The notes: generated from the letters alone by a model not told the origin. Counted from the first letter of the stretch, positions 3,039 to 59,925 are shown. The stretch is 59,932 nucleotides of DNA from Alphaproteobacteria bacterium (GCA_040382295.1 JBEIFU010000001.1:1-59932); one strand, 5' to 3'. Program-made: numbers and translations.

Positions 3039-3052
3039 CACTGCCCCCTTCA

Positions 3053-4341: not shown

Positions 4342-4418
4342 GTCGCGGTGGAGCAGTCCGGTAGCTCGTCAGGCTCATACCCTGGAGGCCGAGGGTTCAA
4401 ATCCCTCCCGCGCAACCA
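4342..4418 (+). tRNA. tRNA-Met (anticodon CAT), initiator-like, with an imperfect acceptor stem
   Basis: Cloverleaf by eye: D arm GAGC/GCTC (A11:T24), anticodon stem TCAGG/CCTGG, loop CTCATAC (CAT at 4376..4378), T arm GAGGG-TTCAAAT-CCCTC, encoded ACCA at the 3' end. Acceptor pairs 3-7 are good; 1:72 (G/A) and 2:71 (T/C) are mismatched. Confidence 0.75.
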
Positions 4419-4449
4419 CCCATCCCCAGAAGACAGAGTCCCACACCCG

Positions 4450-4986
4450 CTACTGCCCGATCAGATCCCTGATCATGGCCGCGAACTCCGCGTTGTTCGA
4501 CCGGAAGTCATCAACATGAACGTCGCTTTTCCCCATGTTGCAGTCATTGCACAGAACCTGCAGGTTTCTCAAATCAAGCGCCAACGCAGGATATTTCCTC
4601 CGGGGCCTGATGTGATCAACAACAAGCCGGCCAGCCTCGGTGTCCCCAGGCCGCCAGCCGCAGCACTGGCACCGATGCCCGTGCACCTTCAACGCCTCAT
4701 ACCTCACGGCCTTCCACTCCCACGACGCATAGAACCCGTCCGGTCCTCCGCGCGCCGCCTTCTCTCGGACAGGATCTCGAGACACCTTCAAAGCCATGCG
4801 CGCCGCAGCCATCAGCCACAACCTCAGCTCCCGCTCGCTTCGCGGCCGACGCCCACTCAAAAATGGGCCAAGCACCTTCTCAGCCAACTTGTTCGAGATG
4901 TTGCCGCCGCCATGACCAAGATGCCTGACCGCCCGAACCACCAAATCCCGGTAATCACTCCCCCCTGAATCTTCCTTACTACCCAT
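4450..4986 (-). CDS. HNH endonuclease
   Basis: 'HGHRCQCCGW...VVDHIRPRRKYP...NLQVLCNDCNMGK'. Start set at MGSKED (4986); the ORF is open to 5085. Confidence 0.8.
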   Translation of the reverse strand: MGSKEDSGGSDYRDLVVRAVRHLGHGGGNISNKLAEKVLGPFLSGRRPRSERELRLWLMAAARMALKVSRDPVREKAARGGPDGFYASWEWKAVRYEALKVHGHRCQCCGWRPGDTEAGRLVVDHIRPRRKYPALALDLRNLQVLCNDCNMGKSDVHVDDFRSNNAEFAAMIRDLIGQ

Positions 4987-5085
4987 CTCAAACCTTATCC
5001 TTAGCTGTTCGTTTGACAGAATGATGCTTAAAGCCCGGGGATCAAACCCAGCCAGCACCATCTGTCTCCCGTGATCTTGCCTCAA

Positions 5086-5554
5086 ACCTCAGAGCCTTGA
5101 GCCGCCACGATTGACAGGCTTCGCGTTTCGATCCGCGCCGCCCGGCCCCACATCCTAACCGCCTGATCGTGGCAGTCCCTCGCTTACACCATAGGGGCAC
5201 CCGCCTCGCAGCAGGAATGATCGGTGCGGGCGCTATGCGAAGCTCCACCTAGTAACGCCCTGGTCTCAACAGACGCGGCGCTACCAAGCATAAGGCCACC
5301 GCGTTTTTCCGTGGCAGGGGTTGCGCGCTCGACCGTGTTACAGTATATCACGCCTCAATCCGGTGACGCTTGTTCCCTGCCAAGGTTTTGCAAGTGTCAT
5401 CCAGGCCGCGCTTGAGATTCGTCTCGCGCGGCCTTCCCTTTCCTAAACCCCATCACATCTCCGCGTCAACTGTTACGATATAACAGCCCACATGCCCACA
5501 AAACCGCGCCGCTTTTTTTGAAAGCACCATCCCCCAGCACAAAAATTTTCGGGG
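5086..5554. other. Large apparently non-coding region with A/T tracts and hairpins
   Basis: No convincing ORF. T7 run at 5513..5519, AAAAATTTT at 5541..5549, perfect hairpin CTGTTAcgataTAACAG at 5470..5486, GC hairpin GCCGCGC-N14-GCGCGGC at 5405..5432, near-palindromic AGTATATCA at 5342..5350. Confidence 0.5.
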
Positions 5555-21751: not shown

Positions 21752-21779
21752 GGCCGGGCATAGCGCCCGGCCTTTCTCA
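21752..21779. terminator. Hairpin terminator at a convergent junction
   Basis: GGCCGGGC-atagc-GCCCGGCC followed by TTTCTCA. It sits between the (+) operon end and the stop of the 4403-aa gene. Confidence 0.55.
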
Positions 21780-30700: not shown

Positions 30701-33700
30701 GCGCCCGCAGCACCACGGCAACCTCGATCGCCTCCTCGAGATCCTTCGCCATGTCGGGGCTGTAGGCGGTCCCGGTCAGGTCCTTCACAAGGGCCCGCGC
30801 CTCCACGATCGTCTTGAACCCAACCCCCTTGCGAAACTCAGCCAAGAAACCATCGGTGATCGCCGCCCGCCACGCTTCCGGCGTCATCGGTTCGGGCTCA
30901 GGCTCCGGTTCGGGATCCGGCTCAGGCTGTGCCTCGGCCGCCTCCTTCTCCTCGCGGATCAGGCGGGCCATCTCCTGCATGACGGCGCGGTCATCGTCCA
31001 TGTCGGCAATGGACTCGCCCTGAACCTCCATCTCGCCACGGATCGAGTTGTAGGAGTCGCGCAGCATCCGAGAAAGCTCTGCGAGCGGACGCTTCAACTT
31101 GTCCGCAATGGAGATCGCATATTCGCGGAACCGGCGAAGGCCGCCCTCGACGTATAGCTCTCCCAAGCGAACCGTCAGCATGAAGATCTTTGGGTCGAGG
31201 CCAGCATTGAGTTGCGTCCGCAGCGCCTCATCAATCTGCGCGGCCAAGTCATCAGCCTCCGCCTGCTTCTCCGGGCTCAGGAGTGGTTGCTTGACGGCAG
31301 GCTTGGCGGCCGGGCGTGGCGCTGCCGGGCGCTGGGCTGGCGCAGGAGCGGGCTTCTCCGCCTTGGGTGGTGTCGGTGCGGGCGCGGGCGCCTCGGGCGG
31401 CTGTGGGGCCGGCGCGGGCGGCGTTACGGGCTCGGTGCCGGTTTCTTCTGGCGCAGTTTCAGGTCCAGCTTGCGGGCGGCCGCCATCATTTCCCGGTCGT
31501 TGTGCCGCTTGCCCACCTTGAGCATTGCCCGGGCGGCCGCCCCCTGCGCCGCCGCCGAAGAGACTTGGGGCTGCGGCTTCTTCGTCTGCGGTGATTTCAT
31601 TCACGATCTCCTGTGGTGTCCGGATTGGTTTTGGCTCGACCCCAGGCAGGTTGCCTTGGTCAATGCGTTCCTTCATGGCCTCGTCGACATATGCCTCGAG
31701 GAACTCCTGCATCCGACCCTTGCTGACCATGCGCGTGCCGGCCGGGTTGAAAAAGGCGTCCTGAACCAGCTCCGCGATCGGGTCAAGCGGAGTGGCGAAG
31801 GCGTCGATCTGCGCGCGGGCCCCTTTCAGATCCTCGTCACGGGTCCGGAAGTCAGCAATGTTCTGCGCCGCGCTGATGATCTGCGGCGTGATGTCCATTG
31901 AAGGATCCACCTCGCCTGCCTCGATTGCTGCCTTGAGCTGGACGACGCGACCAGCGGCTTCCGTCATGGCGCCGGTGATTGACTTGATGTCGTCGTTCAG
32001 GGACTCCGACATGCGCGACAAGAGCTTTTCGTCACCATAAGCCCGGTAAAACAGCGCAGTCTGGAAGCGCCGCTGGCCCTCGACAGTCAAGCCGCCCTCT
32101 TTGGTGACCAGCGCACCTTGCGCGGTCTGGGGCAGTTTCCCGATGAAGGCGCGGATCATGTCGCGGTTGCTCGTGCTGGACATGCCGCCGCCACGGTAAA
32201 GGTCGATCACGCTGCGGTCGATCAGGCTCGCGTCGGACCGCGCGTTCTCGGATGCGGACATGGCCAAGGTTGCCGGCGTGTTGGACGCGGTGGTGAAGTT
32301 GCTCGCAACGTCGGTGACCCGGCGACGGATGATGACCGGGTTCTTCATCCCAGCCGCTTCCGGATACCGCTCCTGCACATAGGCCCGGTATTCCTCAGCC
32401 GTGCCGCGCTCGTAGGCCCGGCGCAAGCCGATGACCCGGCCATTGCCGGATTCAATCACGCGGCCGTCCATGCCGGTGATCGGGGATCCACGGTCGGTTT
32501 CGGGAGACTGGTCGAGGCGGCGCGGGTTGGGCTGGTTGGCGATTCTCTCGATCTGGGCTTGAGACGCGGCGCGGTCGCGGTCGCGCGGCTGCAGCTCCGG
32601 CGGATAGCCTTCCTGATCGGACGTGAGAAGGCTGTCTGCCTCGACCACCATCGTCTCAACGTCGACGGGGTCATTGTCAGGCGTGTCGATCGTGGTGACG
32701 CGATCCGGGTTGACCGGGCGGCTCTCTTGCGCTGGTGCTGTTACCGGGGCCTCGGCCGGGGCAGTCGTGGTGGTCGTTCCTGTGGTCGGCGCTTCTGGCG
32801 CACTTGGCGTCTCCGCTGCAGGGGTTTCAGGGGCAGGCCCACCGGCCGGGCCATAGAGGACATCGAGATCAACGGCGCCGGTCGGGACGTTGACGGGGGC
32901 GGGCGCTTCAACTGTCTGCGCAGCCGTGCCCAGCCCTGACTTGGGCGGCAGGGGTTGCCCGGACTCGATCGCATCGAGCGCCGCCAAGCCGGTCTCCATC
33001 ACATCGTTCGGGACTACAGGATTGGCCTGTTCCTCTGGCGTCAGGCGGGGGCCGCCTGCAGGGCCGCCGCCAAGGCGATCCTGATTGCGACGATCCCTCT
33101 CGCCAGCATAGACCGCGTTGCCCCATTCGATCGGCGCAGTTATGGCTTCTGCCAGCGCCTCCATGATGACCTCGCGCGGGCTGAACTCTTGCCCCGTCAC
33201 AACCCTCGCCGCTGCTTCGCCGCCGCCTCCGGTCAGGGCCTGAACGAACGTGTTGAAAACAGCATCGCCAAGCTCTGACTTGAACAGCGCACGGGCGGCG
33301 ACCCCTTGCCCCAAAGCCTCCGCCGCTGAAATCACGAGGCTTCTCAAGAGCCCTCTGCGATTTGCATCAGCAATCAATTCCGGGTTTTCGAGTGCAGCCC
33401 TCGCATCCGCAGGGGTTTCGAGGCTGACGTTGTTCTCCTGCAGCATCTCGTTGAACGAGGACCCGTATTCCTGGGCCATTGATCCGGCTGTAAGCGCGGC
33501 CACCCCTGCCGCCGGACTTCTTGTGGCGACTGTGACTGCGGTCGTTGCGGCCAGAACCGGAAGGGATTCTGCCGCGACTTCCGACATGAAGATGGTGAAA
33601 TCAAGTGGGTTGGCCGCGATCGTGCTGAGCGTAGCACCCCAAGTGTCGTCATCCTCCGCGAACAGGCGCTGCAACCTCTGGCCTGCAGGGGAGAACGGAA

Positions 33701-34988
33701 TGTCTGACGCGCGGTCGATCAGAGCCTGATGTTGAACCGCCCGTTCCTCGAGCCATTGACGGTATTCTGGATCGGCCTCCGCCCCTCTGGCGTAAACTAT
33801 GCGGGTATCGAAGTCTTGAAGTACGGTTTCAACGCTCGATGCCGGGAAGCCCTGCTCGTAGAGGTATATGATCATCTCTTGCGGATCAGTGAATGACCTG
33901 CCCTCTGGCGGCGATCCGGTAATGCCCTGATAGATGTCTGCAAGAATCCCCTCGGGGCCGATGGCTGCATCGTTGAACGATCTTACGCCCAATGAAAACT
34001 GCAGTGCCGGGAGTGTCGAGCGGGCGCGCAGAATACCGCGCGTCCAAGCCCGGCCTAGCGCCGTTCCCTCCGGGTTGTCGGGATTGTCCGGAACCAACTG
34101 CTCGGCCGTTTGGCTGATTGCGCCAGCCCGGGACGGCGGCAAGAGCGCGGCGCCAAGGCCCTCGGATACAGGCTGCAGCGGCCGTCCCTCGGTCTGGCCC
34201 AGCGCCTCGTTTCGCGCCTCAAGGCTGCGGTCGACCACCTCGGGGCGCGGCTGGGTGACGTTCCGCAGGCCCTCACCGACGATCGGGAACGGCATGGCGG
34301 ACATGACGGGCAGCATGTCAGGCCCGCTATAGGCGGCCGTCCCAAGGCCGGTGGCTGGGGCTGGCTGTGGCGCTGGTGCTGCCGTGGGGCCCGGGGATCC
34401 TGCTGGTCCGACCGCGCGCGGAAACTGCGCTGCCTGCTGGCGGATGTCGGCCTCTGGCGGTCGCATGGATCCCGGGCCGGTCAAGGCCGCACCCTCGGAC
34501 AGCTTGCTTTGCAGATCCGCGATCTCCGCCTCGAGCTGGGCCGCCTGCCCCTGCATGATCTCAAGACTGGATGGCGAGACCCCGGGCCGCCCCATCTGGG
34601 CGCGCAGGTCGTTGAGCGTCCGAACCCGCTGCTCGATCATGGCTTGCGCGGCGCGGGCGTTGCGATCGCCCATCTGGACGCCAAGCCCCATCGGGGCCGG
34701 GCTGTCCTGCGGCATCATCGGTGTCGCGTCACCCCCTCGAGTCGACGGGCGCGTGACGAGGCCGTTCACGCCAAACGGAGACTGCGTGGAATCGGCCGGG
34801 ATCACCGGGTCTGGAATCTGCGTGCTTCTGATCGCCGGGCTGGGCGTCTCTTGCGGCAGGGCCGGGGGCGTGCGCGTCGGCTCTGACCGGTTCGACGGGC
34901 TGCCGTACACTTCATCAAGGGAGAAGGTCTTTGGTTGCGCGGATGTCGTCCCGTAAACGTCATCCAGAGAGAATATCCGCTCAGCCAT
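21777..34988 (-). CDS. Giant polyvalent protein (4403 aa): ParB-like + N6-methyltransferase + strawberry-notch-like SF2 helicase + two HExxH metallopeptidase-like domains + a long C-terminal region
   Basis: Single uninterrupted ORF. Motifs are listed in the domain features below. GGAG lies 7 nt upstream of the ATG and there is a 3-nt gap to the preceding gene. Last gene of the virion operon. Confidence 0.9.
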   Translation of the reverse strand: MAERIFSLDDVYGTTSAQPKTFSLDEVYGSPSNRSEPTRTPPALPQETPSPAIRSTQIPDPVIPADSTQSPFGVNGLVTRPSTRGGDATPMMPQDSPAPMGLGVQMGDRNARAAQAMIEQRVRTLNDLRAQMGRPGVSPSSLEIMQGQAAQLEAEIADLQSKLSEGAALTGPGSMRPPEADIRQQAAQFPRAVGPAGSPGPTAAPAPQPAPATGLGTAAYSGPDMLPVMSAMPFPIVGEGLRNVTQPRPEVVDRSLEARNEALGQTEGRPLQPVSEGLGAALLPPSRAGAISQTAEQLVPDNPDNPEGTALGRAWTRGILRARSTLPALQFSLGVRSFNDAAIGPEGILADIYQGITGSPPEGRSFTDPQEMIIYLYEQGFPASSVETVLQDFDTRIVYARGAEADPEYRQWLEERAVQHQALIDRASDIPFSPAGQRLQRLFAEDDDTWGATLSTIAANPLDFTIFMSEVAAESLPVLAATTAVTVATRSPAAGVAALTAGSMAQEYGSSFNEMLQENNVSLETPADARAALENPELIADANRRGLLRSLVISAAEALGQGVAARALFKSELGDAVFNTFVQALTGGGGEAAARVVTGQEFSPREVIMEALAEAITAPIEWGNAVYAGERDRRNQDRLGGGPAGGPRLTPEEQANPVVPNDVMETGLAALDAIESGQPLPPKSGLGTAAQTVEAPAPVNVPTGAVDLDVLYGPAGGPAPETPAAETPSAPEAPTTGTTTTTAPAEAPVTAPAQESRPVNPDRVTTIDTPDNDPVDVETMVVEADSLLTSDQEGYPPELQPRDRDRAASQAQIERIANQPNPRRLDQSPETDRGSPITGMDGRVIESGNGRVIGLRRAYERGTAEEYRAYVQERYPEAAGMKNPVIIRRRVTDVASNFTTASNTPATLAMSASENARSDASLIDRSVIDLYRGGGMSSTSNRDMIRAFIGKLPQTAQGALVTKEGGLTVEGQRRFQTALFYRAYGDEKLLSRMSESLNDDIKSITGAMTEAAGRVVQLKAAIEAGEVDPSMDITPQIISAAQNIADFRTRDEDLKGARAQIDAFATPLDPIAELVQDAFFNPAGTRMVSKGRMQEFLEAYVDEAMKERIDQGNLPGVEPKPIRTPQEIVNEITADEEAAAPSLFGGGAGGGRPGNAQGGQAAQRPGNDGGRPQAGPETAPEETGTEPVTPPAPAPQPPEAPAPAPTPPKAEKPAPAPAQRPAAPRPAAKPAVKQPLLSPEKQAEADDLAAQIDEALRTQLNAGLDPKIFMLTVRLGELYVEGGLRRFREYAISIADKLKRPLAELSRMLRDSYNSIRGEMEVQGESIADMDDDRAVMQEMARLIREEKEAAEAQPEPDPEPEPEPEPMTPEAWRAAITDGFLAEFRKGVGFKTIVEARALVKDLTGTAYSPDMAKDLEEAIEVAVVLRARELVAEGNEAGQSEAEIYSDMMDLYESQPKLAQRTSTSMLMQAYSTPAPLAYLASRLGKAGPNKTTYEPTAGNGMLLMEANPAKVIANEMQAERVEGLRRVLGDKAKITEGDAMTHEPGSYSLLLTNPPFGKVRSDTGIVQTFTMGDGTTTEIDHAIVMKGLEGLPENGMAVLIIGGKKETDIDARKKAYQGEMTRRFYKQLYDGYWVSEHFTVDGRLYERQGAGWPVDVIVIAGKGKNATKPYPTKVPPPIYTTWQELGERLDGKNTLDPRRVDAGDRDGGDTAPGQTANAGKLPAGPRGQDQSDGPGGGAGDGGTASRPDGGAGGRPVRSPVAGTGGGADVGGVRDPAGTSGSVQPDVADPARPDQTGQEDGSGGGTEPGTGEADRVPGSGVPRPDLDRQNLEVETVFQVQYEPRSKATFAVGTLVPRNMQAAMSRALDALEARVGDIDAFVAKELGYTLDELLGSADQAVGGYFSAEQVDALALAIDNVSKGKGFIIGDQTGVGKGRFVAAMLRYAMLKGLTPVFITKDSALYSDMIRDMRDIGMPKIHESVMVTNPDLRGKDAVPLSSEPEDKLYSMTAKPLGKAMTTMQATGRLPDGQKMLFTTYSQMQQVKGRDTERMNAMRAVAGNAMFVLDESHEAGGGRPNDRADDDKVPRSAFIRELLQGAQGVVYSSATYAKNPYVMSLYSATDLALSVGSIDDLADMIVKGGVPLQQVISNMLVDSGQYARRERSYDGIKMDPEIYITDRALAERGAGVLRAILNLDIDVMEDVRKSFIDGMKQEAEAMADDLSTGSSGLKSQGFASVMHNVAAQFLLAIKVPSAIEEAIALFRDGKKPIIALSNTNASIMTEHMAAVGARVGEKFDLPFNVILERYLRRLRRVTRKIDKDTKEYIYLTDDDIIEHGGQQALDAFEEARQFVLNADLGGLAGSPIDAIMDGLRAAGINVGEITGRSMIIEDGIITKRESSGAGKKRVMNDYNSGALDALVINRSGSTGFSMHATNKPGNDGKPRHMIILQAEPNIDLFMQMLGRIHRTGQTQLPGFTIGISDLSVEKRPAAVLMRKMASLNANTTASKKGAVSLDNVTDFINQYGDIVVANFLRENPVYSAMVDIWPGDNNTDIASKFTGRLVSFPPDLVDEIYDEIETSYKDMIDNLDRMGMNALEAKVLELDAKTINQTELVPASDETSPFGRAAFIETVDVKKIGRSYTAEQVNEEVARALDGKSADAFVTEQTKTLRDAMPAQEQVLRDRLAAQEERLEKAETDKQKDKAQDAINRTIADIGAQQQRLMDITRMLGDLRPGRHGSITVQVSADEATTYSAVALGVDITKASRRPTAASAMTVRIAVADAAKEIRVPLSRLMGDMPDYRWNPSPAFTQSQIMRQFDLGQTESRETRQMITGNIPAGFAQLERGLITYYTDSDGNLKQGVLLPANFDAARAMADQPVRFPEISMVTEFLQGNPGSRVVTDEDNILRVSFMQSGQFAVIVTAKGGNKYVKNRAVIALVGDFMKRQDKIWRKDMSRADLERVLKIYADNLGTEYETNVDKNEARAITGETLPDIPSRDGQERARFSKAKGPTDTATNLSKRAQREQLGGGLEVERPATPFDKIKARSIALNLKKEASKLGLPDIDVDVVEKLFGVLGDGTTIEADGAFFSGMITVALDTETSGVNPSAIGTLRHEVIHALRSSRLWSGSPYGLFRKAEWDALERWALGQTDLLAEQRREYGGMGLTEEQILEEVIAEGFARWVAGQKQTGFVRSAFERIMSLIEAFRSALRGEGFTTAESVLSKINAGAVGRRGQQMTAETAGGVRYMFAGERASRNLDKAGEGGRKIMLADAKKMEKNGATRDEIIAKTGWFKGADGKWRFEINDIGSAIKPDAMLELRGNFQADPWAVNTDYMAKLEDILDHPELYDAFPILGAKTIDVALDRRLKGPTRGAFYKATPLNRARITLNPSLTADEIRDVILHELQHSVQNIEGFQTGGNIEGGRSAALVAKTGLTPEQVYVRLAGEVEARNVQRRQDFTEGQRGQIPPWMTEDVAPDQQILESMGGPSMSISERAAEVRFAKAQRGANRVASAMVGQPVTSGVTMQTPVKHRKESFLRTVMTQPIDAAFRIPFMAVGGLDQYGRWNYGKAAEKVIRNLVVEQKMGFMSPLVERVRAGIVDRYGLPEEYVERDRRRGVDEAILTAEGKEHIDAIAKANLSVDELKTLQAIMTGEELPSATMENLSEPIRKAIDQMGLEAVELGLISRESYERNKGKYLHRVYAKGEEDVGSLEAMVRALGRSRRRRIVGDQFKGRGIFKEVAIERIFKDNEAFLGARRGKPQVGEMIRVLEVRSTSNIDPLTGMESPSGRMVRRVYLPADQQIPASIDNYDDRGTFEVRGENNGKVTLWRDFTKAERAKMGEILDARYTIAKTYQLMAHDLATGRFFADIAKNEQWATKKPPADAKVDENPERRGFLSRIFINTDLEWVKVPDAKIAKSQAARYGALAGMYVRADIWRDMEELRQLQSPFFYQKILTQWKLNKTARNPVVHMNNMMSNWMFMDMADVRTEDLFAGVASYIRGDADYQEAAQAGAFGADFVTSEIRDNVLQPLLQQIADEMRGGKGGLEGEFGKIGLVMDKIVGALKAVDGGMLRAYQLEDQLFRMALYLRRRKQGATIDEAAIEARDQFLNYDIRAPWINVARTTVLPFIGYTYRAIPKIAQTMAERPWKIAKYIIITQALNTLAYAVAPSDDDEEDERNSMREDQQGKTWIGVPFTDIGLPRMMRMPWLQDEMPVFLDVRRWIPAGDVFDLQGDIPSWLQVGGPLMIGMELYLNKTAFTGEEIFNPLTDTFSERMAARADYLWKSYMPSAVWIPNSWYQEQLLRAVMGDARQWNSNAPYDPGAALLNSFGVKLKPQDVETGFVSWQIEFDRINRELDAKERSLVRQFERNMIDERALDRAVDRINGQRDRLYERQMDIMPE
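24549..25136 (-). other. Domain: second HExxH module, about aa 3285-3480
   Basis: 'TGWFKGADGKWRFEINDIG' followed by 'VILHELQHSVQNIEGFQTGG' (HELQH = 24765..24779) and 'GEVEARNVQRR'. Confidence 0.5.
25269..25871 (-). other. Domain: zincin-like metallopeptidase 1, about aa 3040-3240
   Basis: 'GTLRHEVIHALRSS' (HEVIH = 25632..25646). Confidence 0.5.
27309..29462 (-). other. Domain: SF2 helicase, strawberry-notch-like, about aa 1843-2560
   Basis: Walker A 'GDQTGVGKGR' (aa 1931-1940), motif II 'FVLDESHE' (aa 2065-2072), motif VI 'LGRIHRTGQ' (aa 2463-2471). Confidence 0.8.
29504..29911 (-). CDS. Embedded +1-frame ORF (135 aa from the ATG) inside the methylase-helicase linker
   Basis: 'MEKIRWTPEGSMQGIGTVEIPRPVRPLTLENYRLALAAKINRMVREAG...'. 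GGGAGAG lies 9 nt upstream of the ATG. The GC3>GC1>GC2 pattern belongs to this frame, not to the megaprotein frame. Confidence 0.4.
   Translation of the reverse strand: MEKIRWTPEGSMQGIGTVEIPRPVRPLTLENYRLALAAKINRMVREAGPATAAQLLAQTVERVDGLSAARWLEQVGELMSEESETLQERAGVFSQMWPIQPDQIKPDKRMDLEVGPNPEPERLIEFLGRVYHGLT
29949..30671 (-). other. Domain: N6-adenine DNA methyltransferase, about aa 1440-1680
   Basis: Motif I 'YEPTAGNGMLL' (aa 1496) and motif IV 'LLLTNPPFGK' (NPPF = 30312..30323). Confidence 0.8.
32304..32666 (-). other. Domain: ParB/Srx-like (DdrB-ParB type), about aa 775-895
   Basis: 'PPELQPRDRDRAASQAQIERIANQPNPRRL...PITGMDGRVIESGNGRVIGLRRAYERG'. Confidence 0.55.
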
Positions 34989-52462: not shown

Positions 52463-54732
52463 ACCGACCCCCCAGAGCTTGTGCCTGTCTCGCGCTGCAA
52501 GGCAATCTCGGCAGCCAGCATCAGTTTTTCATGTCGCTGCTTTGCGTCGAATTGACGCTTCTTCTCGGCCAACTCGTCCTCGCTCATGTTCAGCATTTCA
52601 GCGAGCCTGTTCATGCCGGCATCAAAGCCCATCTGGGCGATCCGCTCGCGCGTGGACCATTCCAGCTCGACCCGTGCAGTCTGCGCCTCGACCTCCTCGC
52701 GCTTGACCTTGACCTCCTCTACCTTGGCCTCTGCAGCGGCTTGCGCGGCGGCGGCGGCGGGATCCACCTTTGCCTCGGCCTCGGCCATGTCCTTGCGGTA
52801 TTCCCGCTCGGATTTCAGGATCTCGTCGACCGGGATCATGTTGGCCCTGAAAATGGCGCGCAACAGGCCGTCTGACTTGATCATCGGCCCGTAGACAGGG
52901 TGATCGCCGAAGATCTGGGCGATCATCAGAAGGTTGTTGGCCAGCATCTCGCGAACCAGAAGGACGCCCGACCCCCGGGCCGCCACCTCGTAATCGCCCT
53001 TGATGTTGTCCTTTTTGGAAAACTGCATGTTCCAGTGATAGAAGCGGGTGATCATGGGGATGATGATGTTGTCGTCGTAGAGCCGCACCATGCGCCGGAA
53101 GATCACGTTTGCGCTGTTCATCAGGAGCGCCATGCCCTGCGCGGTCTTGGTCACGCCGGTCCCTTGCTCGCCCTGTGCGATGGCGGGCATGCCGGATATC
53201 TCGTCGTGCAGATCCCGAGCCAGACCGATGATGTTGGCAAGCTCGTTCTGGTTGGAGTCGATGTTGAAGGACTCGAACGCCGGAACCCCGGACACGCTCT
53301 TGGTCTGATCCCTTACCCAGATCTTGCGCGGAGTCAGTGTCCAGTCGCCGTCCTGCGGATGCACCAGCCCTTGCGTCACCACGATCTGCGGGCCGGTCGA
53401 CAAGGCTGAGTTGTCCATCATCATCCGGAAGGCGGCATTGAAAACGATCTGCGGATTCCGGACAATCCACGGGATGCCATAGCCGAAGGGTGACGCCTCA
53501 TCTGGGCGCACCGTGAAGACGGAGTAGATGCAGTCGTTGGAGTCCAGCGGGTGCAGGGCGAACGACAGGACCTTGCCTTGGCAGAACCACACCTTGACGT
53601 AATAGCTGGTCAGGATGTCGACCTCGCCGCTGCTCTCCGGCATGAATGCAGCCGCCAGGAGCTTCATGTCCTCGGTCTCGACCGGCCCGGTGTATTCCCA
53701 GACGTGATAGAGATTGCGGTTCAGCCCGGAATCGTTGGAGTTGGTGATGGTGTTGATTTGGGACTTGTAGGCAGGCATCCCCTCGCTGGGTTTCTGGCTC
53801 AGGATCTCACGGACAACATCCTTGTCGATATCGTCGCGTTCCTTGGTCAGGCGGCGCAGTTGGTCAGGTGTGAGCAAGTGGCGCTCTAAATCGCCACGGC
53901 CATTTGCAACATCCTGAGAATCTGGATCCGGATAATATGACCACGGGTCGACCCAATGCATGCCGGGGTCAAGGTTCTGAACAAACTGCAGTTCATAGGA
54001 TGTCGCGCCCGTCACTGGATCTTTGGTCGACACCCACTTGCGCCGTCCCCGGCCGCCGGCCACCGGCCCTTTGACCACCCCGAAACCGATCTTGCAGCCG
54101 TCCGAGATCGCCATGCGCGCCTGCGCCGGTGCGCCGCATTGTTGGAGCTGGTCCGCGATCTCCTTCTCCATCAGCTCGGCGCGGCGGGATGCCTCGTCGA
54201 GGATGGCCTGCAGTTCATCATGCGCGGCCCGTGCGGTCTTCTCTTGTTCCTCAACGACGCGCTTTTGTGTCTCGAGTCCCTGCACCTCCTCGGCCGGTGC
54301 ACCGCTCTGGGACGCCGCCATTGATTGCTCATGGAGCTGATCGGCTTCCTTGGTCAGGCGATCAAGGTTCGCCATGGCCTCCTCGGCCTGCTTGGTCAGC
54401 TCAGGGACCGGCGTGGGGCCGATCGACCAGTTCTTGTCGTCGGTCGGAAACAGGAGGTCGAACAGCCGCGCGATCAGGGTGTCGGTCTTGGGCGCCGTCA
54501 TGTTCATGAAGATCTGGGAGCTTTTCGATTCCTCGAGCCGCTTGGTGATCGCGTCGTTGTAGATGCCGTGGTATTGCTGCAGATCCTCGATCCAGCGGTT
54601 TTCCACAATAATGCGGCGGTCAACCCGGCGCTTTGCCTCGGCAGCAAGGGTGTCGACGAAAGCCTCGAGCCTCTTGTTCAGGGCCTCTGGCTTCTCCTCT
54701 TTGTAACCGCTGGCTTTCATATCGCCATCCAT
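52459..54732 (-). CDS. Portal protein (757 aa)
   Basis: Assigned from size and position directly after terL. The start shares a nucleotide with the terL-C stop. Confidence 0.65.
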   Translation of the reverse strand: MDGDMKASGYKEEKPEALNKRLEAFVDTLAAEAKRRVDRRIIVENRWIEDLQQYHGIYNDAITKRLEESKSSQIFMNMTAPKTDTLIARLFDLLFPTDDKNWSIGPTPVPELTKQAEEAMANLDRLTKEADQLHEQSMAASQSGAPAEEVQGLETQKRVVEEQEKTARAAHDELQAILDEASRRAELMEKEIADQLQQCGAPAQARMAISDGCKIGFGVVKGPVAGGRGRRKWVSTKDPVTGATSYELQFVQNLDPGMHWVDPWSYYPDPDSQDVANGRGDLERHLLTPDQLRRLTKERDDIDKDVVREILSQKPSEGMPAYKSQINTITNSNDSGLNRNLYHVWEYTGPVETEDMKLLAAAFMPESSGEVDILTSYYVKVWFCQGKVLSFALHPLDSNDCIYSVFTVRPDEASPFGYGIPWIVRNPQIVFNAAFRMMMDNSALSTGPQIVVTQGLVHPQDGDWTLTPRKIWVRDQTKSVSGVPAFESFNIDSNQNELANIIGLARDLHDEISGMPAIAQGEQGTGVTKTAQGMALLMNSANVIFRRMVRLYDDNIIIPMITRFYHWNMQFSKKDNIKGDYEVAARGSGVLLVREMLANNLLMIAQIFGDHPVYGPMIKSDGLLRAIFRANMIPVDEILKSEREYRKDMAEAEAKVDPAAAAAQAAAEAKVEEVKVKREEVEAQTARVELEWSTRERIAQMGFDAGMNRLAEMLNMSEDELAEKKRQFDAKQRHEKLMLAAEIALQRETGTSSGGSV

Positions 54733-55475
54733 CAGTATCCAGCCTTTCTGTCAGCGATCGTGACAACATTTGTCATATCGGTCTTCGCCATCCGGACAGA
54801 CCCGACCAAGTGGAATGTCATGTACCCATATCGCAGGGCGTCGATCGCGTGGTCGTTCTTCTTGACCACCTTCCCGTTCTCGTCCCTGCGGTAAAACCGG
54901 TACTCGTTCAAAAGACCTGCAAGAGTCGAAAAAACCTTGAGCCGGCCAATGGAAAAGGCCGTCCACAACTCAAAGAGCCCGGCGTCCACCGCGTTGATTG
55001 CCGGCGTCACCACCAGACCCAAGTTGCGATATGTCTCGATCAGTTGCTTGCCCTCGTCCTGACTGCGCCCGCGCGCGGCCGGGTCGATGGCGCCCCTAAC
55101 CCAATCTCCACGGGCCTTGATGGCAGAGACGTGGACGATGGGAAGTGCCTGCCCCTGATAATGCTCGGCATAGGCGTACATCGTATTGTCGTCGGGGTTC
55201 CGCGCAAGCCAGATCGCCGCAGTCCTGTTCCAACCCACGTCCATCCCATAGGCCCGGGGCCAGTAATTCGGGATCGTGAAGGGCTGGACGACGATCTCGC
55301 TTTCGGGGATCGGGAAGATCGCTCCGGATCCGAGTGATGGAATGCCCTTCGATCGCGCATCGCGCAGATATGGTGGCGTGGAATCCAGCATCTCGCGCTT
55401 GGTCTTCTCGTCCAGGTGGGGAACATCGTCCCAACCGGCGTTGACCATGTACTTGGATTCCGAAACGTGACCCAT
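54732..55475 (-). CDS. terL: Terminase large subunit, C-terminal nuclease half (separate ORF)
   Basis: 'NAGWDDVPHLDE','YGMDVGWNRTAAIW','KKNDHAIDALRYG'. An in-frame TGA at 55509..55511 lies 11 codons upstream of the ATG. Confidence 0.8.
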   Translation of the reverse strand: MGHVSESKYMVNAGWDDVPHLDEKTKREMLDSTPPYLRDARSKGIPSLGSGAIFPIPESEIVVQPFTIPNYWPRAYGMDVGWNRTAAIWLARNPDDNTMYAYAEHYQGQALPIVHVSAIKARGDWVRGAIDPAARGRSQDEGKQLIETYRNLGLVVTPAINAVDAGLFELWTAFSIGRLKVFSTLAGLLNEYRFYRRDENGKVVKKNDHAIDALRYGYMTFHLVGSVRMAKTDMTNVVTIADRKAGY

Positions 55476-55531
55476 GAGATTCCCATCGAATTGTGGTGCG
55501 CCCCACCATCACGGCAGGGCGCATCGAGAGA

Positions 55532-55990
55532 TCAGAGCGGATCAAGGGCAAGCACGAGCCAGCCGGTGAGGTTCAGCGTAGTCGGGGTCATGCCGGTGGT
55601 GTTGACGTTCATGCCGATGGTGTCGCCAGCCTTGAAGGCAACGCCCTGCTCAAACTCCACAAAGGACGTGTCCGATTGCGGAAGCGCGGTGCTGAGTGTC
55701 ACGGCGCTGTCGTTGAAGGTAACGGCGGCCCCGTTGATCGAGGCGCGGCCGACGATCGTGCCGGCGGTCACATCAGCGTCGGTGGTGATCATCATCCCGA
55801 CAATCCGGCCACCTTGGGCCATCTTGGTCTCTCGGGTGGAGAGGGAAAGAGCCGTCGCAGTGTTGAAGTATGCCAGCGAAAGAAATGTCGAGGCGGTGCC
55901 GGCCACGTCGTTTGTGACGAAGGGGCCCAGCGTTACGTTCATCTTCACGGCATCGAGACGGTTCAGTCTCCTGTTTGGCGTAGCGGTCAT
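55532..55990 (-). CDS. 152-aa beta-rich ORF inserted between the two terL halves
   Basis: CAGGAGAC RBS 7 nt upstream of the ATG. 'MTATPNRRLNRLDAVKMNVTLGPFVTNDVAG...'. No endonuclease or intein motifs. Confidence 0.55.
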   Translation of the reverse strand: MTATPNRRLNRLDAVKMNVTLGPFVTNDVAGTASTFLSLAYFNTATALSLSTRETKMAQGGRIVGMMITTDADVTAGTIVGRASINGAAVTFNDSAVTLSTALPQSDTSFVEFEQGVAFKAGDTIGMNVNTTGMTPTTLNLTGWLVLALDPL

Positions 55991-56027
55991 GTCGAAGTCT
56001 CCTGATCTATTTCATAAAGGATCGGCG

Positions 56028-56816
56028 CTACTCCGGCGCCACCGGACGCATGTCTTCTGGAAGGAACGATATCACAACATCACTCATTCCCTCTAGTGGG
56101 GTAAATGTGAGCATGACAATACCATTAGTGGTGGCCGTCCGGATCAGTGCCTCGCCATAGACATCTTGCGGCGGCTCCTCATCGAACCACACGCAATGCT
56201 GGCTCGTACCCTCGAAAGATCCACGTCCCTGCTGATAGGATTTAAGGCCCAGAAGCGAGAATCCGCCCGTGACATGCAGGATCCGCACGGTGTCAGCCAG
56301 ATCGGGAACACCGGCCTTCCACGTCACGTTGCCCGGAAGGTGGCCCGGGATGACGCCGGTTCCGTCGAACCGTTTGCGGCCAGCGACGGTGATCGGGTCG
56401 CCAAGAAGGGTCTTTTGGACGATGTCGCGGGTGGTTTCGTTTGTCTTGCCGGCCGCCCAGGCACGGATCGGGGTCTTGAAGCGCCGCCCCTCCCACCACT
56501 CGGGATATAGCCCGGTCAGGTGGCATGCGGTCTCATAGCCGCCCGCGCCGAACGTCTTGCCAACCCGGTTGCCTGCCATGAAACACCGCTCTCGGTACTC
56601 CGCTCCCATCTTGAAAAACTCAAGGTGCTTTTCGTACTTCTCTCGGGCGAAGATGGTTGTCCCATCCGGCTGCGGCTGGTCCTGATCGGGGAAAAGTTCA
56701 AAAAACTTGCGCTGCGACTTCCGCCGCGCCATCTCGCTCAGGAGGGCGACGAGGTTCCCAAGGCCGGTCAGTTCTGCGGTCAATTCTGCCTCTTTTCGGT
56801 CAGTGATCGCGCGCAT
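56028..56816 (-). CDS. terL: Terminase large subunit, N-terminal ATPase half (separate ORF)
   Basis: Walker A 'MAGNRVGKTF', 'YPEWWEGRRF', Walker B 'CVWFDEEP'. Ends '...TFTPLEGMSDVVISFLPEDMRPVAPE' followed by TAG. Confidence 0.8.
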   Translation of the reverse strand: MRAITDRKEAELTAELTGLGNLVALLSEMARRKSQRKFFELFPDQDQPQPDGTTIFAREKYEKHLEFFKMGAEYRERCFMAGNRVGKTFGAGGYETACHLTGLYPEWWEGRRFKTPIRAWAAGKTNETTRDIVQKTLLGDPITVAGRKRFDGTGVIPGHLPGNVTWKAGVPDLADTVRILHVTGGFSLLGLKSYQQGRGSFEGTSQHCVWFDEEPPQDVYGEALIRTATTNGIVMLTFTPLEGMSDVVISFLPEDMRPVAPE

Positions 56817-56939
56817 GATAGGGGCGAAAGGCGGTTCTCGCCATAAATGATTGTCTCGTTGTAGCGCGACCGTGTCGATCGTGCTAGGTTGCCCTAAAAT
56901 TCAGGCGTCCAGGCGCATACCCACAGCAGAGAGGCCCCC

Positions 56940-57218
56940 ATGGCACAGAACACCAAGATCCTCGTCCCAGCCAACACCGCGACACTCCTGACGGACTCCG
57001 CAGTCACCGCACTGACGTTCACGGTCGAGGGTCAATTCCCTGTCCAACTTCAGGGCAGGTCTGGGACCGGAGCTATCACGACTTGGGGCCCGACATATGA
57101 CTCTGGGCAAGGCGAACTGAACATTGCCGTGGCAGACCTATTTCCTGGCGTTTCAGGAGCCGACCGGGTGTATGCCTTGGCCTTTTCTCCCACCGTCGTC
57201 TGGGTCAGCCATGCGTGA
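56940..57218 (+). CDS. Small beta-rich hypothetical protein (92 aa)
   Basis: First gene of the divergent (+) cassette. Confidence 0.45.
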   Translation: MAQNTKILVPANTATLLTDSAVTALTFTVEGQFPVQLQGRSGTGAITTWGPTYDSGQGELNIAVADLFPGVSGADRVYALAFSPTVVWVSHA

Positions 57219-59925
57219 GATCATCTCGCCGTTTGATGGGTTCGGATCGCCGTTCGGGCCACGTCGGGCTGGCGGGGCTGCGGCTCCCGCTGTCTTTGAC
57301 TACACGATCACCAACGATGCGCAGTGGGCGACAATCCCCGCAGGTATCCTATCGGGTGGCGGTCGAGTTGGGATTGAACCCGGCAACTACACGGCCAAGA
57401 CGATCACGGCGGCCCCTTCATCACGCTTGGTATTTGAGGCGACCAATCCCGGCAGCAAGCCGGTAATTGATCGGATTACTTTGAACGGCAGCCAGCGGAT
57501 TACACTCAAGTCGCTGCGCATTGTCTCCTCACAGTGGGCGGATTCCGTCGTAACAAATAACTGCGTGACCCTCACTGGATCAAACGTTTCACCGATCTTG
57601 GATAGTTGTGATCTTCAGGGCAACTATCGCGGCACAGTTGGGCCGATTGATGTAGTCAACAATCTACCCGAATACGCCTGCATTGCAGCAGATGTGTCTG
57701 GCGGGGCGATCAGTGCGCTCGAAATCACCCAGCCCTATGTCGGCACGCTAATTGCCGATGGCGTCCACAGCCTGGACTTTACTCCGGCAGGTGGGACAGG
57801 GGCAACGGCGACTTTCACGGTCACTGGTGGGGACATCGTGAGTACAAGTCTGACAGCCGGGGGTTCTGGATATACAACATCGAGCCACCGTACACGGCGG
57901 GCGATTTGGACCGGACAGCGCCGGATGCTGGACTGGTTGCCGTGGGGCATCCGGGGTTCAAGTTCAACCGGGGTAAGCGGCATTGTCGTGCAGGACTGCA
58001 CGTTTGATACGCTCGCAAACGCCTTCAAGCCGGGCACGGTAAATGGCAGCGTCACGTCGCTGCGCAACACCTTCACGCGGACTTATATGGATGTGCAGTC
58101 GTTTGGGCTGTCTCACCCGGACGCGCCCTATCCTGTCACGATTGCCTTCAACTACTCGTCACTGCCATTCTCGATCGCGCAGAAAGACGCGGGCGATCCG
58201 CATTCGGACGTTGTGCAACTCTTCGCGGACGACCTCGGCGGAGCGGGCAACATCACAACAGCGAATTGGGAGAACGTGTTGGTGTACGGGAACGTCCATC
58301 AAGACGGTACTTGCAGAGGCTCGGTGCAGGGTATGATCATCGCGGACATGCCCTCAGGCGTGTCTTTCGCAGGCTCGAAGTTCGTCGGAAACCACATTGC
58401 ATCCAACGAGCAACCTCTTGGGATTGCTATAACCAACCCGCGCGACTGTTACATCTACGCGAATAGCATCATCCGACACGATCACACTGACACCGTGCGC
58501 AACGTTTCAGCAGTCCAGCTTCGCGTCCCCGGCATTCAAGACAATCCGGGTGGTGGGTACTACGCCTACGGGAGCAATCTGGTAGGCCACAACATCGTTG
58601 AGGGGTTCGATGCCAATGGCTTCGGGATTCCAGAAGTCAACGGCCAGCGGTACTCAAATACCATCCTTGGGGCCATAGGTGCAACGGTTGCATACACGTC
58701 CGTATTCACGGCCCCGACCGGGGCGCGGGCGACGTTGGCGCAGATCAAATCCGCTTATACCCCCATCGGTGCATACTCGGCCAAGGGCGCTTTTGGATCA
58801 GCCAGTCCTGTAGATGTCGTGAACCGCACTTACAGTCTGAGCCTTGAACCGACTTATGTGCAATTTGATGACTTGATCGGGCAGGCGCTTAACACGCAAG
58901 TTACATCGAACTGGTCGCGGATCGTCGGCGGACCTGCAACACGGTCAATCAGCGTCTCGGGGGCCAGCGCCCAATGGCGACAGGCGGATGATGCGTCAGG
59001 CACAAACGCAACAGCGTGGACATCTTCCAGCGGAACCCTGACTATCGGTAAGTTCCTGCAAGTCCGGGCCACATCCGGGGGTGATGGCGCATCGGTGACC
59101 GCGAACGTTACTATCGGTAGCGAGGTCTATTCGTGGGGCGTAACATCTCTGTCAACAGCGTCGTTTGTAGCCATTGACAACGGCGGCTCTGCGCGGTCAA
59201 GCGTTTCTGCACTCAGCACAGACACTGGCATTCGGAAGGTAGCTATTGCGTTCAGAATGCGCCCCGATGCGGTCACTGCCGGAGCAAATTTCTTCGCGGA
59301 TTCGGCTGCATCAACCTTCCGAGTTTGGTTTCCCACAACAGGCGCATTTCGTGGGCAGTTCTTCAATTCGGGTAGAGTACAACTGCGGCCCGTTCTGACG
59401 CCCACAACTGTTATGAAGACGCACATCATAACGCTGGACTTCACGAACCCCAACGCGGCGCAGGGCTGCTCTTGGGCCACCATTGAAGACGGTATTCTGC
59501 TCAACAACACAACGGGTTCAGGTGGCACATTCGACAGCCGGTCAGTAGCTGGGTCTGGCTCAGACTACGGCGCGGCCAGTCTGCAAGCGTCAGGTGCGAC
59601 TTCGGCCCTTTTCCACTCTGCTGGTGACCTCGGTATCTTTGGTGAATCAGACGGTGGTGGGACGCTATTCGATGGGGCCTTCGAGTTCATGTGGATCGAT
59701 TGGGGCGGCAGTGGTTACACCATCCCCGACATCACGCTGGCTTCCATCCGAAACAAATGGGCGGCTGGTATCATCGGGGCCAATGGCAACGGTCCAACAG
59801 GGTCGCAACCAAAGTGCTTCTGGACTGCAACCGATCTTACGGAAGCTAACAGCGGTGGTGGGATGCCAAACCTCGGCAGCATTTCAAGCAAGCCACTCGT
59901 CAAGCAGGCGGGAACTTACGCCTAA
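57211..59925 (+). CDS. Tailspike / depolymerase-like protein with a right-handed beta-helix (904 aa)
   Basis: 'RITLNGSQRITLKSLRIVSS...CVTLTGSNVSPILDSCDLQGN', 'GIVVQDCTFDT'. Start MREIISP. The 3' end lies in the terminal repeat. Confidence 0.6.
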   Translation: MREIISPFDGFGSPFGPRRAGGAAAPAVFDYTITNDAQWATIPAGILSGGGRVGIEPGNYTAKTITAAPSSRLVFEATNPGSKPVIDRITLNGSQRITLKSLRIVSSQWADSVVTNNCVTLTGSNVSPILDSCDLQGNYRGTVGPIDVVNNLPEYACIAADVSGGAISALEITQPYVGTLIADGVHSLDFTPAGGTGATATFTVTGGDIVSTSLTAGGSGYTTSSHRTRRAIWTGQRRMLDWLPWGIRGSSSTGVSGIVVQDCTFDTLANAFKPGTVNGSVTSLRNTFTRTYMDVQSFGLSHPDAPYPVTIAFNYSSLPFSIAQKDAGDPHSDVVQLFADDLGGAGNITTANWENVLVYGNVHQDGTCRGSVQGMIIADMPSGVSFAGSKFVGNHIASNEQPLGIAITNPRDCYIYANSIIRHDHTDTVRNVSAVQLRVPGIQDNPGGGYYAYGSNLVGHNIVEGFDANGFGIPEVNGQRYSNTILGAIGATVAYTSVFTAPTGARATLAQIKSAYTPIGAYSAKGAFGSASPVDVVNRTYSLSLEPTYVQFDDLIGQALNTQVTSNWSRIVGGPATRSISVSGASAQWRQADDASGTNATAWTSSSGTLTIGKFLQVRATSGGDGASVTANVTIGSEVYSWGVTSLSTASFVAIDNGGSARSSVSALSTDTGIRKVAIAFRMRPDAVTAGANFFADSAASTFRVWFPTTGAFRGQFFNSGRVQLRPVLTPTTVMKTHIITLDFTNPNAAQGCSWATIEDGILLNNTTGSGGTFDSRSVAGSGSDYGAASLQASGATSALFHSAGDLGIFGESDGGGTLFDGAFEFMWIDWGGSGYTIPDITLASIRNKWAAGIIGANGNGPTGSQPKCFWTATDLTEANSGGGMPNLGSISSKPLVKQAGTYA

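Follow-up and report, generated by a model that had tools for sequence, protein, structure and literature searches.

The split terL locus

The gene for the large terminase subunit (TerL) is a hallmark of tailed phages and serves in their detection, completeness assessment, phylogeny and taxonomy, on the assumption that it encodes a single two-domain chain. In the window, by which we mean the whole stretch of 59,932 nucleotides analysed here, a phage-like genome of ~60 kb in which portal, capsid and the remainder are intact, terL is present as two genes with an unrelated gene between them. This raises the question whether terL is broken, is rejoined at the RNA or protein level, or encodes a true two-polypeptide TerL, and what kind of gene has come to lie between the halves.

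The minus strand carries three ORFs, which we call terL-N, the cargo gene and terL-C (Table 1). Their coordinates and motifs were correctly given in the initial annotation, and so were the combined length of the halves (509 aa), the non-coding spacers of 37 and 56 nt and the opening of the terL-C frame 11 codons upstream of its ATG. Both halves share one frame, 185 codons apart; the insert of 555 nt holds six stops in frame with terL, and the middle ORF is read in a different frame. terL-C and the portal gene (757 aa, SU10-type) overlap by stop and start codon (TGATG), and terL thus lies beside the portal in the head-assembly module, which is one mark of a large terminase of the Terminase_6 (P22/Sf6/T4-type) family. 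A further mark, both domains on one polypeptide, is missing; stop, insert and new start are conserved in relatives.

Table 1. Features of the split terL locus, in positions of the window.
Feature	Position	Strand	Description	Basis
terL-N	56028..56816	-	262 aa	Pfam, PHROG, dN/dS, homologue lengths
Spacer with cargo RBS CAGGAGAC	55991..56027	-	37 nt	sequence
Cargo gene	55532..55990	-	152 aa, predicted all-beta	profile search, model, dN/dS
GC-rich stem-loop	55495..55525	-	between cargo stop and terL-C start	folding
terL-C	54732..55475	-	247 aa	Pfam, 4DKW and D6E alignments, dN/dS

The product of terL-N consists of N-terminal helices, Walker A (GNRVGKT), Walker B with the catalytic glutamate (VWFDEEP) and the C-motif (TFTPLEG), followed by a variable tail, EDMRPVAPE, and a TAG stop. 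It matches Pfam Terminase_6N (E 5e-14, positions 1-153 of 215) and phrog_31467 (E 4e-87), and the invariance of GNRVGKT, VWFDEEP and TFTP in 17 homologues marks it as an ASCE ATPase. The best 120 database homologues are without exception half-length (222-314 aa) and all end at one common position. Over its final ~90 nt terL-N shows 100% identity to the related locus L003, and beyond this stretch the identity drops. The nuclease domain of terL-C is recognised by Pfam Terminase_6C (28.5 bits, cut-off 22.6). Strong purifying selection is evident in both halves, with dN/dS of 0.02-0.06 for terL-N and 0.02-0.09 for terL-C.

Position of the break

The break had been placed in the natural inter-domain linker, with separate ATPase and nuclease genes as the result. 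Both claims fail, as the ATPase domain itself is cut. Residues 8-60 of terL-C align with Terminase_6N positions 162-214, the match to the P22 nuclease-domain crystal construct 4DKW starts only at terL-C residue ~48 (E 1e-22), and the linker of the D6E TerL (residues 230-241) corresponds to terL-C residues ~46-58, downstream of a beta-strand and the lid helices. The second half accordingly combines an RNase H-like nuclease domain with three elements that precede it: the final ATPase-core beta-strand (KYMVNAGWDDVPH), the lid helices and the linker (~residues 46-58). In the contiguous TerL of EBPR podovirus 1 the Terminase_6N profile runs unbroken across the break site (residues 61-293), and with this protein and the contiguous TerLs of Xfas53 and PaP3 as reference no residue is lost or duplicated at the break, which falls into a variable loop.

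Judged from these alignments, the break is inside the ATPase domain and not in the linker. An AF2 model of the joined 509-aa sequence, computed without an alignment, was poor (pLDDT 32.7), so that the placement rests on the D6E and P22 alignments and on Pfam. Because the cut passes through the ATPase domain, the products cannot be viewed as an "ATPase" and a "nuclease" module that are independent of each other, and since terL-C holds the last ATPase strand, lid, linker and nuclease, the ATPase fold would have to be completed in trans.

Split and fused terL among relatives

The three-gene layout is kept in the divergent loci L003-L006 and L174, at dS values up to ~1-1.9. A survey of fused versus split terL, which the initial annotation had proposed, revealed that 96 of 158 related loci are split at the same loop and 62 are fused; at an N-half identity of at least 55% the ratio is 50 split to 4 fused. 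The split is hence not peculiar to the window genome, but an old, clade-wide architecture common to ~100 phages and prophages. It likewise occurs in genomes of cultured bacteria (Aminobacter, Aureimonas, Azospirillum, Cupriavidus, Acidovorax). In 49 split loci the halves abut or overlap (TAATG, ATGA), in varied frames and with proper ATG or GTG starts. Another 44 contain 0.15-5.8 kb of heterogeneous, unrelated cargo in the gap, including fibre-like proteins, HipA toxin or toxin-antitoxin genes, HNH, methylase and resolvase genes. The 152-aa gene was dropped into an already existing terL junction. A rough NJ tree with parsimony yields at least 12 changes between the split and fused states, a number on which we do not rely as a count of events; it indicates that the history was not one clean event, and some of the calls may be tree error.

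We also have to consider that terL is broken and non-functional, the element being a decaying prophage or packaged by a helper. Many of the surveyed loci are indeed prophages or metagenomic contigs, which need not be viable. However, both halves remain under the constraint described above at dS of ~0.4-1.3, the identical break recurs in 96 loci with motifs intact and starts precisely coupled, and the genome of the window is otherwise intact, which leaves a non-functional terL with very little probability. An assembly or sequencing artefact, either an indel or a chimera, was considered by the authors who described the split terL of phage phiPDS1 (see below). Here its probability is close to nil, as independent assemblies from JGI and from Logan samples, 55-99% identical, have the three-ORF layout.

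Splicing and recoding

Could one full-length TerL still be restored? The 555-nt insert might be a self-splicing intron, group I or other, that carries an ORF. The common frame of the halves and the conserved hairpin 3' of the ORF are compatible with this, and terL is a known intron target in Jug phages (PMC12880540). The non-coding 93 nt (37 + 56) are nevertheless too few for a ribozyme core, and each half has its own stop, start and spacing. The Rfam scan for introns suggested in the initial annotation favoured a true split: even at a relaxed E<=10 over 54500-57100 it gave no intron family, only three sub-threshold, snoRNA-like noise matches. The DNA of the cargo ORF is free to diverge at synonymous sites and therefore holds no RNA structure. 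In addition, 49 relatives are split with zero intervening sequence, so that nothing remains to be spliced, and in others the halves are out of frame with each other. An intron is thus highly improbable.

A single chain might also arise by ribosomal bypass or frameshifting, or by trans-splicing through a split intein; recoding has been suggested for the interrupted terminase genes of Streptomyces phages (PMC10732093), and fractured genes with split inteins are known (PMC2677866). In the window, the ribosome would have to jump all 555 nt with their six in-frame stops and a translated ORF. Junctions among the relatives occur in every frame and at many spacings with no common signal, so that neither splicing nor a single recoding rule fits them all. 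The ends of the halves align residue for residue with contiguous TerLs and leave no room for intein halves; flush ends and in-frame stops are not those of an intein. Restoration of a single chain by any of these routes is extremely improbable.

Conservation, selection and the survey support the earlier proposal that terL truly consists of two genes, separated by an unrelated one. The checks on the outcomes that the initial annotation had set against it (splicing, a continuous terL, a known mobile element as middle ORF), as far as they were pursued in silico, all favoured a true split.

The cargo gene

A dN/dS of 0.18-0.23 against relatives, together with 448 homologous clusters, indicates that the cargo ORF is real and not a chance frame. 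It forms an island of divergence (74% versus 99% amino acid identity) with near-identical terL on either side; its dS is 2.5 times that of the flanks, and its non-synonymous evolution is ~25 times faster than that of terL.

No credible match to the 152-aa ORF was obtained from Pfam, PHROG, NCBIfam or PADLOC, nor any by tblastn against 50,697 phage records. An exhaustive profile search, by contrast, returned the 448 clusters at E<=1e-3, 65 of them at E<=1e-30, covering profile positions ~15-152. The homologous segment is nearly always the C-terminal end of proteins of 160-1539 aa, several of which also match collagen, phage-tail-repeat, pectate-lyase or tail-fibre PHROGs; some homologues sit in other gene contexts. 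By profile homology the cargo protein is a free-standing version of the domain that forms the C-terminus of more than 400 tail-fibre-like protein clusters. The whole ~135-aa tip domain is represented, and beyond it the protein has ~15 residues only, with no fusion to a fibre shaft or anchor. No second copy of the domain and no fibre or shaft partner was found within the window.

The AF2 model of the cargo protein (6 sequences) is all-beta but of low confidence (pLDDT 58.8). Foldseek gave weak matches among minor tail proteins, fibre proteins and TNF/C1q-like jelly rolls, the best PDB matches to this low-confidence model (E ~1e-3, TM 0.41-0.46) being 4-1BBL, C1QL2, BclA and the A-1(L) short-fibre CBD; given the model, these are suggestive only. 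The earlier description of a beta-rich protein without HNH, LAGLIDADG, GIY-YIG or intein motifs agrees with the model and with the lack of nuclease matches.

The middle ORF might instead be a novel homing endonuclease or selfish element that made and keeps the split. HNH ORFs directly upstream of terL-C in two relatives (L114, L119), and the GIY-YIG ORF in the terL of Xanthomonas phage DES1, at a different site, make an endonuclease origin of the original split plausible. The 152-aa ORF itself has no nuclease motif and no match in the four annotation resources named above, belongs to a fibre-associated family with a jelly-roll-type fold in the low-confidence model, and is not needed for the split, which occurs without it. 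That this ORF is such an element is barely credible.

Another reading gives the 152-aa protein a dedicated role in packaging or assembly, such as bridging TerL-N and TerL-C or acting on the portal, similar to that of the packaging or morphogenesis accessory suggested in the initial annotation. Its place inside the split terL and shortly before the portal gene, its strong RBS and the purifying selection would fit. However, the domain is found in terL gaps only of the window's close relatives, and most split relatives have an empty gap or quite different genes, which makes the gene a cargo and not a packaging factor. Its homologues are fibre-like C-terminal domains or lie in other contexts, and it evolves far faster than terL. 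We regard a packaging role as very unlikely. From its domain context the protein is most likely, as a guess, an accessory at the virion surface, or one that binds the host surface, and not a part of the motor.

Comparison with other interrupted terminases and enzymes

Our literature search for split terminase or TerL found no dedicated study, and the precedents for a two-gene TerL are only annotations in cultured phages. The closest is KellEzio, a cultured, plaque-forming phage whose two-gene TerL receives one sentence in its description (PMC5513430). In KellEzio and Kitkat (Arthrobacter, cluster AT, Kelleziovirus) gp4 carries the ATPase domain and gp10 the nuclease domain, with five unrelated genes on the same strand in between (a RusA-like resolvase and four hypotheticals). 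The window shares the single strand, the N-to-C order and the unrelated intervening gene. The Terminase_6C match of the KellEzio nuclease half begins at residue 143 after a long N-terminal stretch, which points to a break upstream of the linker, as in the window; in either case the nuclease domain comes after the break. The two systems differ in host phylum and in the sipho morphotype of KellEzio, and show no significant BLASTP similarity. Arthrobacter matches to terL-N were weak and unrelated to cluster AT. The search found no publication offering a survey, a mechanism or a cargo-slot idea for the KellEzio split. In the isolated lytic Parabacteroides phage phiPDS1 the TerL domains are annotated as two CDS (PMC10773633), which the authors treated as a possible codon-table or assembly problem, with no intervening gene described.

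NrdA of Aeromonas phage Aeh1, a "genes-in-pieces" case, is the best mechanistic analogue: an inserted free-standing endonuclease gene, mobE, cuts the gene of an essential enzyme, whose two translated pieces are reported to reassemble in active form (PMC3045599). The insert of Aeh1 is a homing endonuclease in one phage, whereas the window has a non-nuclease insert in a clade-wide, often empty split. In Streptomyces phage phiHau3 the terminase is in pieces with interruptions of 7-10 nt and rare UUA codons, and a bypass yielding one protein has been proposed (PMC10732093); unlike in the window, its pieces are not separate genes. DES1, of the same TerL family, and the Jug phages, whose terL is cut by group I introns, are interrupted at other sites and in association with ribozymes or endonucleases, of which the insert here has neither. 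Moron or hypervariable hotspots likewise consist of conserved flanks around variable, horizontally exchanged and self-expressed genes. The window differs in that one enzyme, in two halves, provides both conserved flanks.

A probable two-polypeptide motor subunit and its implications

A two-polypeptide TerL, an inherited split and a cargo slot occupied by a fibre-tip-like gene would together explain the locus as a whole, and we assign this explanation a probability of roughly 0.7. TerL-N would supply the ATPase motifs for nucleotide binding and catalysis, and TerL-C the nuclease, the linker, the lid subdomain and the final strand of the ATPase sheet; the two would come together in each motor subunit, where this strand would complete the ATPase fold in trans. 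The two-gene layout, common to a large group of phages and prophages, is inherited, in its simplest form with genes overlapping by 1-4 nt and presumably translationally coupled. The junction, intergenic within a highly expressed late operon and bordered by very conserved coding sequence, lends itself to insertion and exchange, and the variety of cargo is consistent with a slot in which unrelated genes are swapped, probably by recombination. In the window this slot holds one gene with its own strong RBS, whose predicted product is a fibre-tip-like beta-sandwich protein.

A much broader version is rather unlikely. It extends a heterodimeric TerL with an in-trans ATPase across an undescribed assemblage of phages and prophages from Proteobacteria, Acidobacteriota and other phyla, in which the split would be kept as useful. 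The junction would then serve as a cassette slot anchored by recombination, from which genes for host interaction (fibre tips, toxins, anti-restriction) are expressed together with the late genes, and a TerL made as two chains might blunt host sensors that detect its fold, Avs-type NLRs among them (PMC11564622).

Since the two-gene TerL is common and conserved, many pipelines will mis-score or misplace such genomes; the half-genes of the present locus carried the labels "unknown function" (phrog_31467) and "domain-containing protein". A natural, viable cut inside an ASCE ATPase fold would give motor mechanics a ready-made split system for the study of subunit assembly, lid movement and communication between ATPase and nuclease. 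For phage evolution, the junction is a clear, easily recognised cargo hotspot, in which one could look for genes of host range, toxins and counter-defence.

Spacers and hairpins

The RBS of the cargo gene, CAGGAGAC, lies 7 nt upstream of its ATG, and a small terminator-like hairpin spans the terL-N stop codon (56023..56041). The stem-loop between the cargo gene and terL-C has an MFE of -31.7 kcal/mol (z -2.8), and a longer fold has the start region of terL-C paired with the last part of the cargo ORF. Among the four sequences compared, L006 and L174 keep a stem between cargo gene and terL-C although its sequence has changed, a weak hint that this hairpin may couple or tune terL-C translation.

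Organisation of the split terL

The two halves of the large terminase gene (terL-N and terL-C) and the 152-aa middle ORF (Table) are consecutive, with spacers of 37 nt (terL-N to middle ORF) and 56 nt (middle ORF to terL-C). They are directly followed by the portal gene (757 aa), whose ATG overlaps the terL-C stop (TGATG). The middle-ORF ATG is preceded by CAGGAGAC, and the terL-C reading frame is open from 11 codons before its own ATG. Both halves share one frame, 185 codons apart and with six stops in between, from which the frame of the middle ORF differs. Pfam Terminase_6N is divided between them, with positions 1-153 of 215 on terL-N and 162-214, together with Terminase_6C, on terL-C; no credible Pfam match was obtained for the middle ORF. 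PHROGs assigns phrog_31467 and phrog_2 to terL-N and phrog_5653 and phrog_2 to terL-C, and the GC content is even across the region. Layout, frames and profile matches therefore confirm the ORF description of the initial annotation.

The profile of phrog_31467 ("unknown function") extends about 20 positions beyond the break, onto terL-C residues 9-28 (55392..55451), so that some of its members must either extend further or represent fused genes that were cut short.

Features of the split terL region in the window and of loci compared with it
Feature	Locus	Position	Strand	Remarks
terL-N	window	56816..56028	minus	262 aa
Middle ORF (cargo gene)	window	55990..55532	minus	152 aa
GC-rich hairpin	window	55495..55525	minus	between cargo stop and terL-C start; MFE -31.7 kcal/mol, z -2.8
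terL-C	window	55475..54732	minus	247 aa
92-aa ORF upstream of terL-N	window	56940..57218	divergent from terL-N	no Pfam match
933-aa ORF upstream of terL-N	window	57124..59925	divergent from terL-N	no Pfam match
4403-aa ORF	window	21777..34988	minus	ddrB-like ParB, Strawberry-notch-type helicase (AAA_34, Helicase_C_4), LPD23 domains
HNH endonuclease ORF	L114	2013..2570		immediately upstream of terL-C
HNH endonuclease ORF	L119	9800..10396		immediately upstream of terL-C; related to that of L114
Fibre-like/repeat-rich gap ORF	L015	4734..7040
Fibre-like/repeat-rich gap ORF	L096	8328..10694
Fibre-like/repeat-rich gap ORF	L099	7860..8528
Fibre-like/repeat-rich gap ORF	L119	9137..9799
Stand-alone cargo homologue	L175	635..1096		57% identical; outside any terL gap
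Interrupted terL, Xanthomonas phage DES1	L002 (OK624832)	2887..5220		165-aa GIY-YIG ORF after ~118 aa
Two-gene TerL, Arthrobacter phage KellEzio	L177 (KU647626)	1607..5165		gp4 "ATPase domain", gp10 "nuclease domain"
L-numbers denote loci from other phages, prophages or contigs.

Distribution and age of the split

With terL-N as the query, 2,793 proteins were retrieved at E<=1e-20; the 120 best matches (63-77% identity) are all half-length (222-314 aa) and stop at the same point, after FLPxxMRP. Both halves were sought in each of 80 IMG/VR and 80 GTDB genome loci. They are present in 158, of which 96 are split at the break site of the window and 62 are fused; at N-half identities of at least 55%, 50 loci are split and 4 fused. 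The split is clade-wide and not confined to this genome. Carriers include cultured strains of Aminobacter, Aureimonas, Azospirillum, Cupriavidus, Acetobacter and Acidovorax as well as many MAGs; among the cultured ones are Aureimonas sp. Leaf454, Aminobacter aganoensis DSM 7051 and Cupriavidus basilensis KF708. A rough NJ tree with parsimony gives at least 12 changes between split and fused states, a count that is indicative only. Split and fused loci nevertheless each form large, coherent clades in it, and the window belongs to a clade of about 45 taxa that are all split. In twelve loci (L019, L104, L125 and nine more) a terL-N homologue is present and the ~6 kb of downstream sequence retrieved contain no terL-C, so either their gaps are still larger or the C half is located elsewhere.

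In 49 split loci the halves abut or overlap (TAATG, TGATG, ATGA, GTGA) or are a few nt apart, and the proper terL-C starts read MPxVSESKY..AGWDDVPH. Their junctions vary in frame and spacing, so neither an intron nor a single recoding rule is applicable, and the Rfam intron scan gave no match even at E<=10. Two polypeptides are the only reading common to all junctions. Of the five close homologues of the 152-aa protein, four occupy the same position, flanked by the two terL halves, on contigs that were assembled independently (L003-L006 and L174). The dN/dS values against these relatives are 0.02-0.06 for terL-N, 0.02-0.09 for terL-C, 0.08-0.12 for the portal and 0.18-0.23 for the middle ORF. 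The split is genuine and long-standing. The same layout in relatives, the low dN/dS, the negative intron scan and the abutting junctions bear out the two-gene terL of the initial interpretation, but the domain boundary and the packaging role proposed with it are not borne out.

Position of the break

When the joined halves are aligned with the contiguous TerLs of EBPR podovirus 1, Xylella phage Xfas53 and Pseudomonas phage PaP3, no residues are lost or duplicated, and the break falls into a short variable loop between ...TFTPLEGMSDVVISFLP and KYMVNAGWDDVPHL. Judging from the alignments, this loop is not the inter-domain linker in which the break had initially been placed. The Terminase_6N profile is unbroken over residues 61-293 of the EBPR TerL, spanning the break position, and the alignment with the crystal construct of the P22 nuclease domain (4DKW) begins only at terL-C residue ~48. 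In a profile of contiguous relatives, the segment "kflvqatwDDvpHls..." aligns with the D6E TerL (5OE8) from residue ~192 on. Y213, M216 and R224 of D6E belong to the lid subdomain and residues 230-241 form the linker (PMC5727402), which puts the linker at about residues 46-58 of terL-C. TerL-C thus starts with the final ASCE-sheet strand, followed by the C-terminal lid helices, and we infer that the ATPase would be complete only with both chains together.

The gap as a cargo slot

Gaps of 0.15-5.8 kb separate the halves in 44 loci, and their contents are unrelated from lineage to lineage. They include fibre or virion-structural-like proteins (L015, L096, L119 and the beta-helix protein of L105), an N4-gp49/Sf6-g66 family protein (L105), a HipA toxin with an HTH partner (L064, L141/143/152), DUF1643 (L152/154), a resolvase with a D12-type methylase (5-kb gap of L022), HNH endonucleases and various small ORFs without assigned function. 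The gap between the terL halves is a cargo slot. The HNH ORFs may be vestiges of the process by which the split or the insertions come about. Four fibre-like or repeat-rich gap ORFs (L015, L096, L099, L119) have, as compared by eye only, a similar short, Gly/Met/Arg-rich C-terminal tail, e.g., ...GFMKNIAGFMRT, ...MGRWMNR and ...LGRMMNRRG.

In the window the cargo is a sharply bounded island of divergence. Sliding identity to the closest relative, L003, is 0.9-1.0 in terL, 0.62-0.82 exactly across the middle ORF and 0.92 again at its stop; amino acid identity is 74% for the middle ORF vs. 99% for terL, and dS is 0.97 vs. 0.37 (terL-N) and 0.40 (terL-C). A cargo dS above that of the flanks would fit an exchange of alleles through recombination within the conserved terL sequence on either side.

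An exhaustive profile search with the 152-aa protein yielded 448 clusters, in almost all of which the domain makes up the C-terminal ~135 residues of proteins 160-1539 aa long. Features of the larger proteins are collagen repeats, phage-tail repeats, pectate-lyase-like beta-helices, F5/8-type-C domains or tail-fibre PHROGs, and a 248-aa homologue (P0006) is located after large phage-like ORFs without credible family match. The AF2 model is all-beta and of low confidence, and its weak Foldseek matches are to TNF/C1q-type jelly-roll folds, CBM35 and a cyanophage short-tail-fibre domain in the PDB and to Gordonia/Mycobacterium minor tail and fibre proteins and collagen-repeat proteins in BFVD. 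Searches of the protein revealed neither nuclease motifs nor matches to defence systems, and a second copy of the domain is absent from the window, as is any counterpart from the terL gaps of other lineages. From this domain context we consider it slightly better than an even bet that the protein is a stand-alone, fibre-tip-like module with a putative binding function, co-expressed as cargo with the late genes and probably associated with the virion or host surface. The packaging accessory initially suggested is not upheld; the protein is very unlikely to be a packaging factor. A 127-aa ORF with a faint match to transglutaminase-like peptidases lies upstream of the stand-alone homologue in L175.

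Comparison with other interrupted terminases

Interruption of terL by introns or endonucleases is well known, e.g., from the Jug phages (PMC12880540), and short recoding interruptions have been proposed for terminases of Streptomyces phages (PMC10732093). The interrupted terL of DES1 belongs to the same TerL family as that of the window but has another break site, and its endonuclease ORF is annotated merely as hypothetical. True two-gene TerLs have precedents only as annotations or passing remarks. In KellEzio five genes, including a RusA-like resolvase, separate the halves, to which the paper devotes one sentence (PMC5513430); ~140 residues precede the RNase H-like domain of the nuclease-bearing half, and similarity between the KellEzio halves and those of the window is not detectable. 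The terL of Parabacteroides phage phiPDS1 is split as well, although the authors of that study took the split for a probable artefact (PMC10773633). Both phages are cultured and plaque-forming, so a two-gene TerL is compatible with a viable phage. The best mechanistic analogue is the Aeh1 NrdA, which is split by mobE into pieces that reassemble (PMC3045599). Studies covering the breadth of two-gene TerLs, their fixed break inside the ATPase fold or the use of the junction for cargo did not turn up in our literature searches. The layout in this clade would represent a known but barely described kind of two-gene TerL.

Hairpin and genomic neighbourhood

The stem of the hairpin before terL-C is retained with changed sequence in L006 and L174 (four sequences compared), and in a longer predicted fold the end of the cargo ORF pairs with the terL-C start region and occludes it. 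Such a structure would be in keeping with a coupled or tuned translation of terL-C; a comparison of four sequences does not make this certain.

Homology between L003 and the window stops at 56906, and the divergently transcribed genes upstream of terL-N vary among relatives. In the window, no small-terminase gene is present beside terL-N (region 56817..59925), unlike L010, L011 and L012, in which Sf6_terminase or Terminase_2 genes are located directly upstream. The 4403-aa ORF is a "large polyvalent protein", a kind found in phages and conjugative elements.
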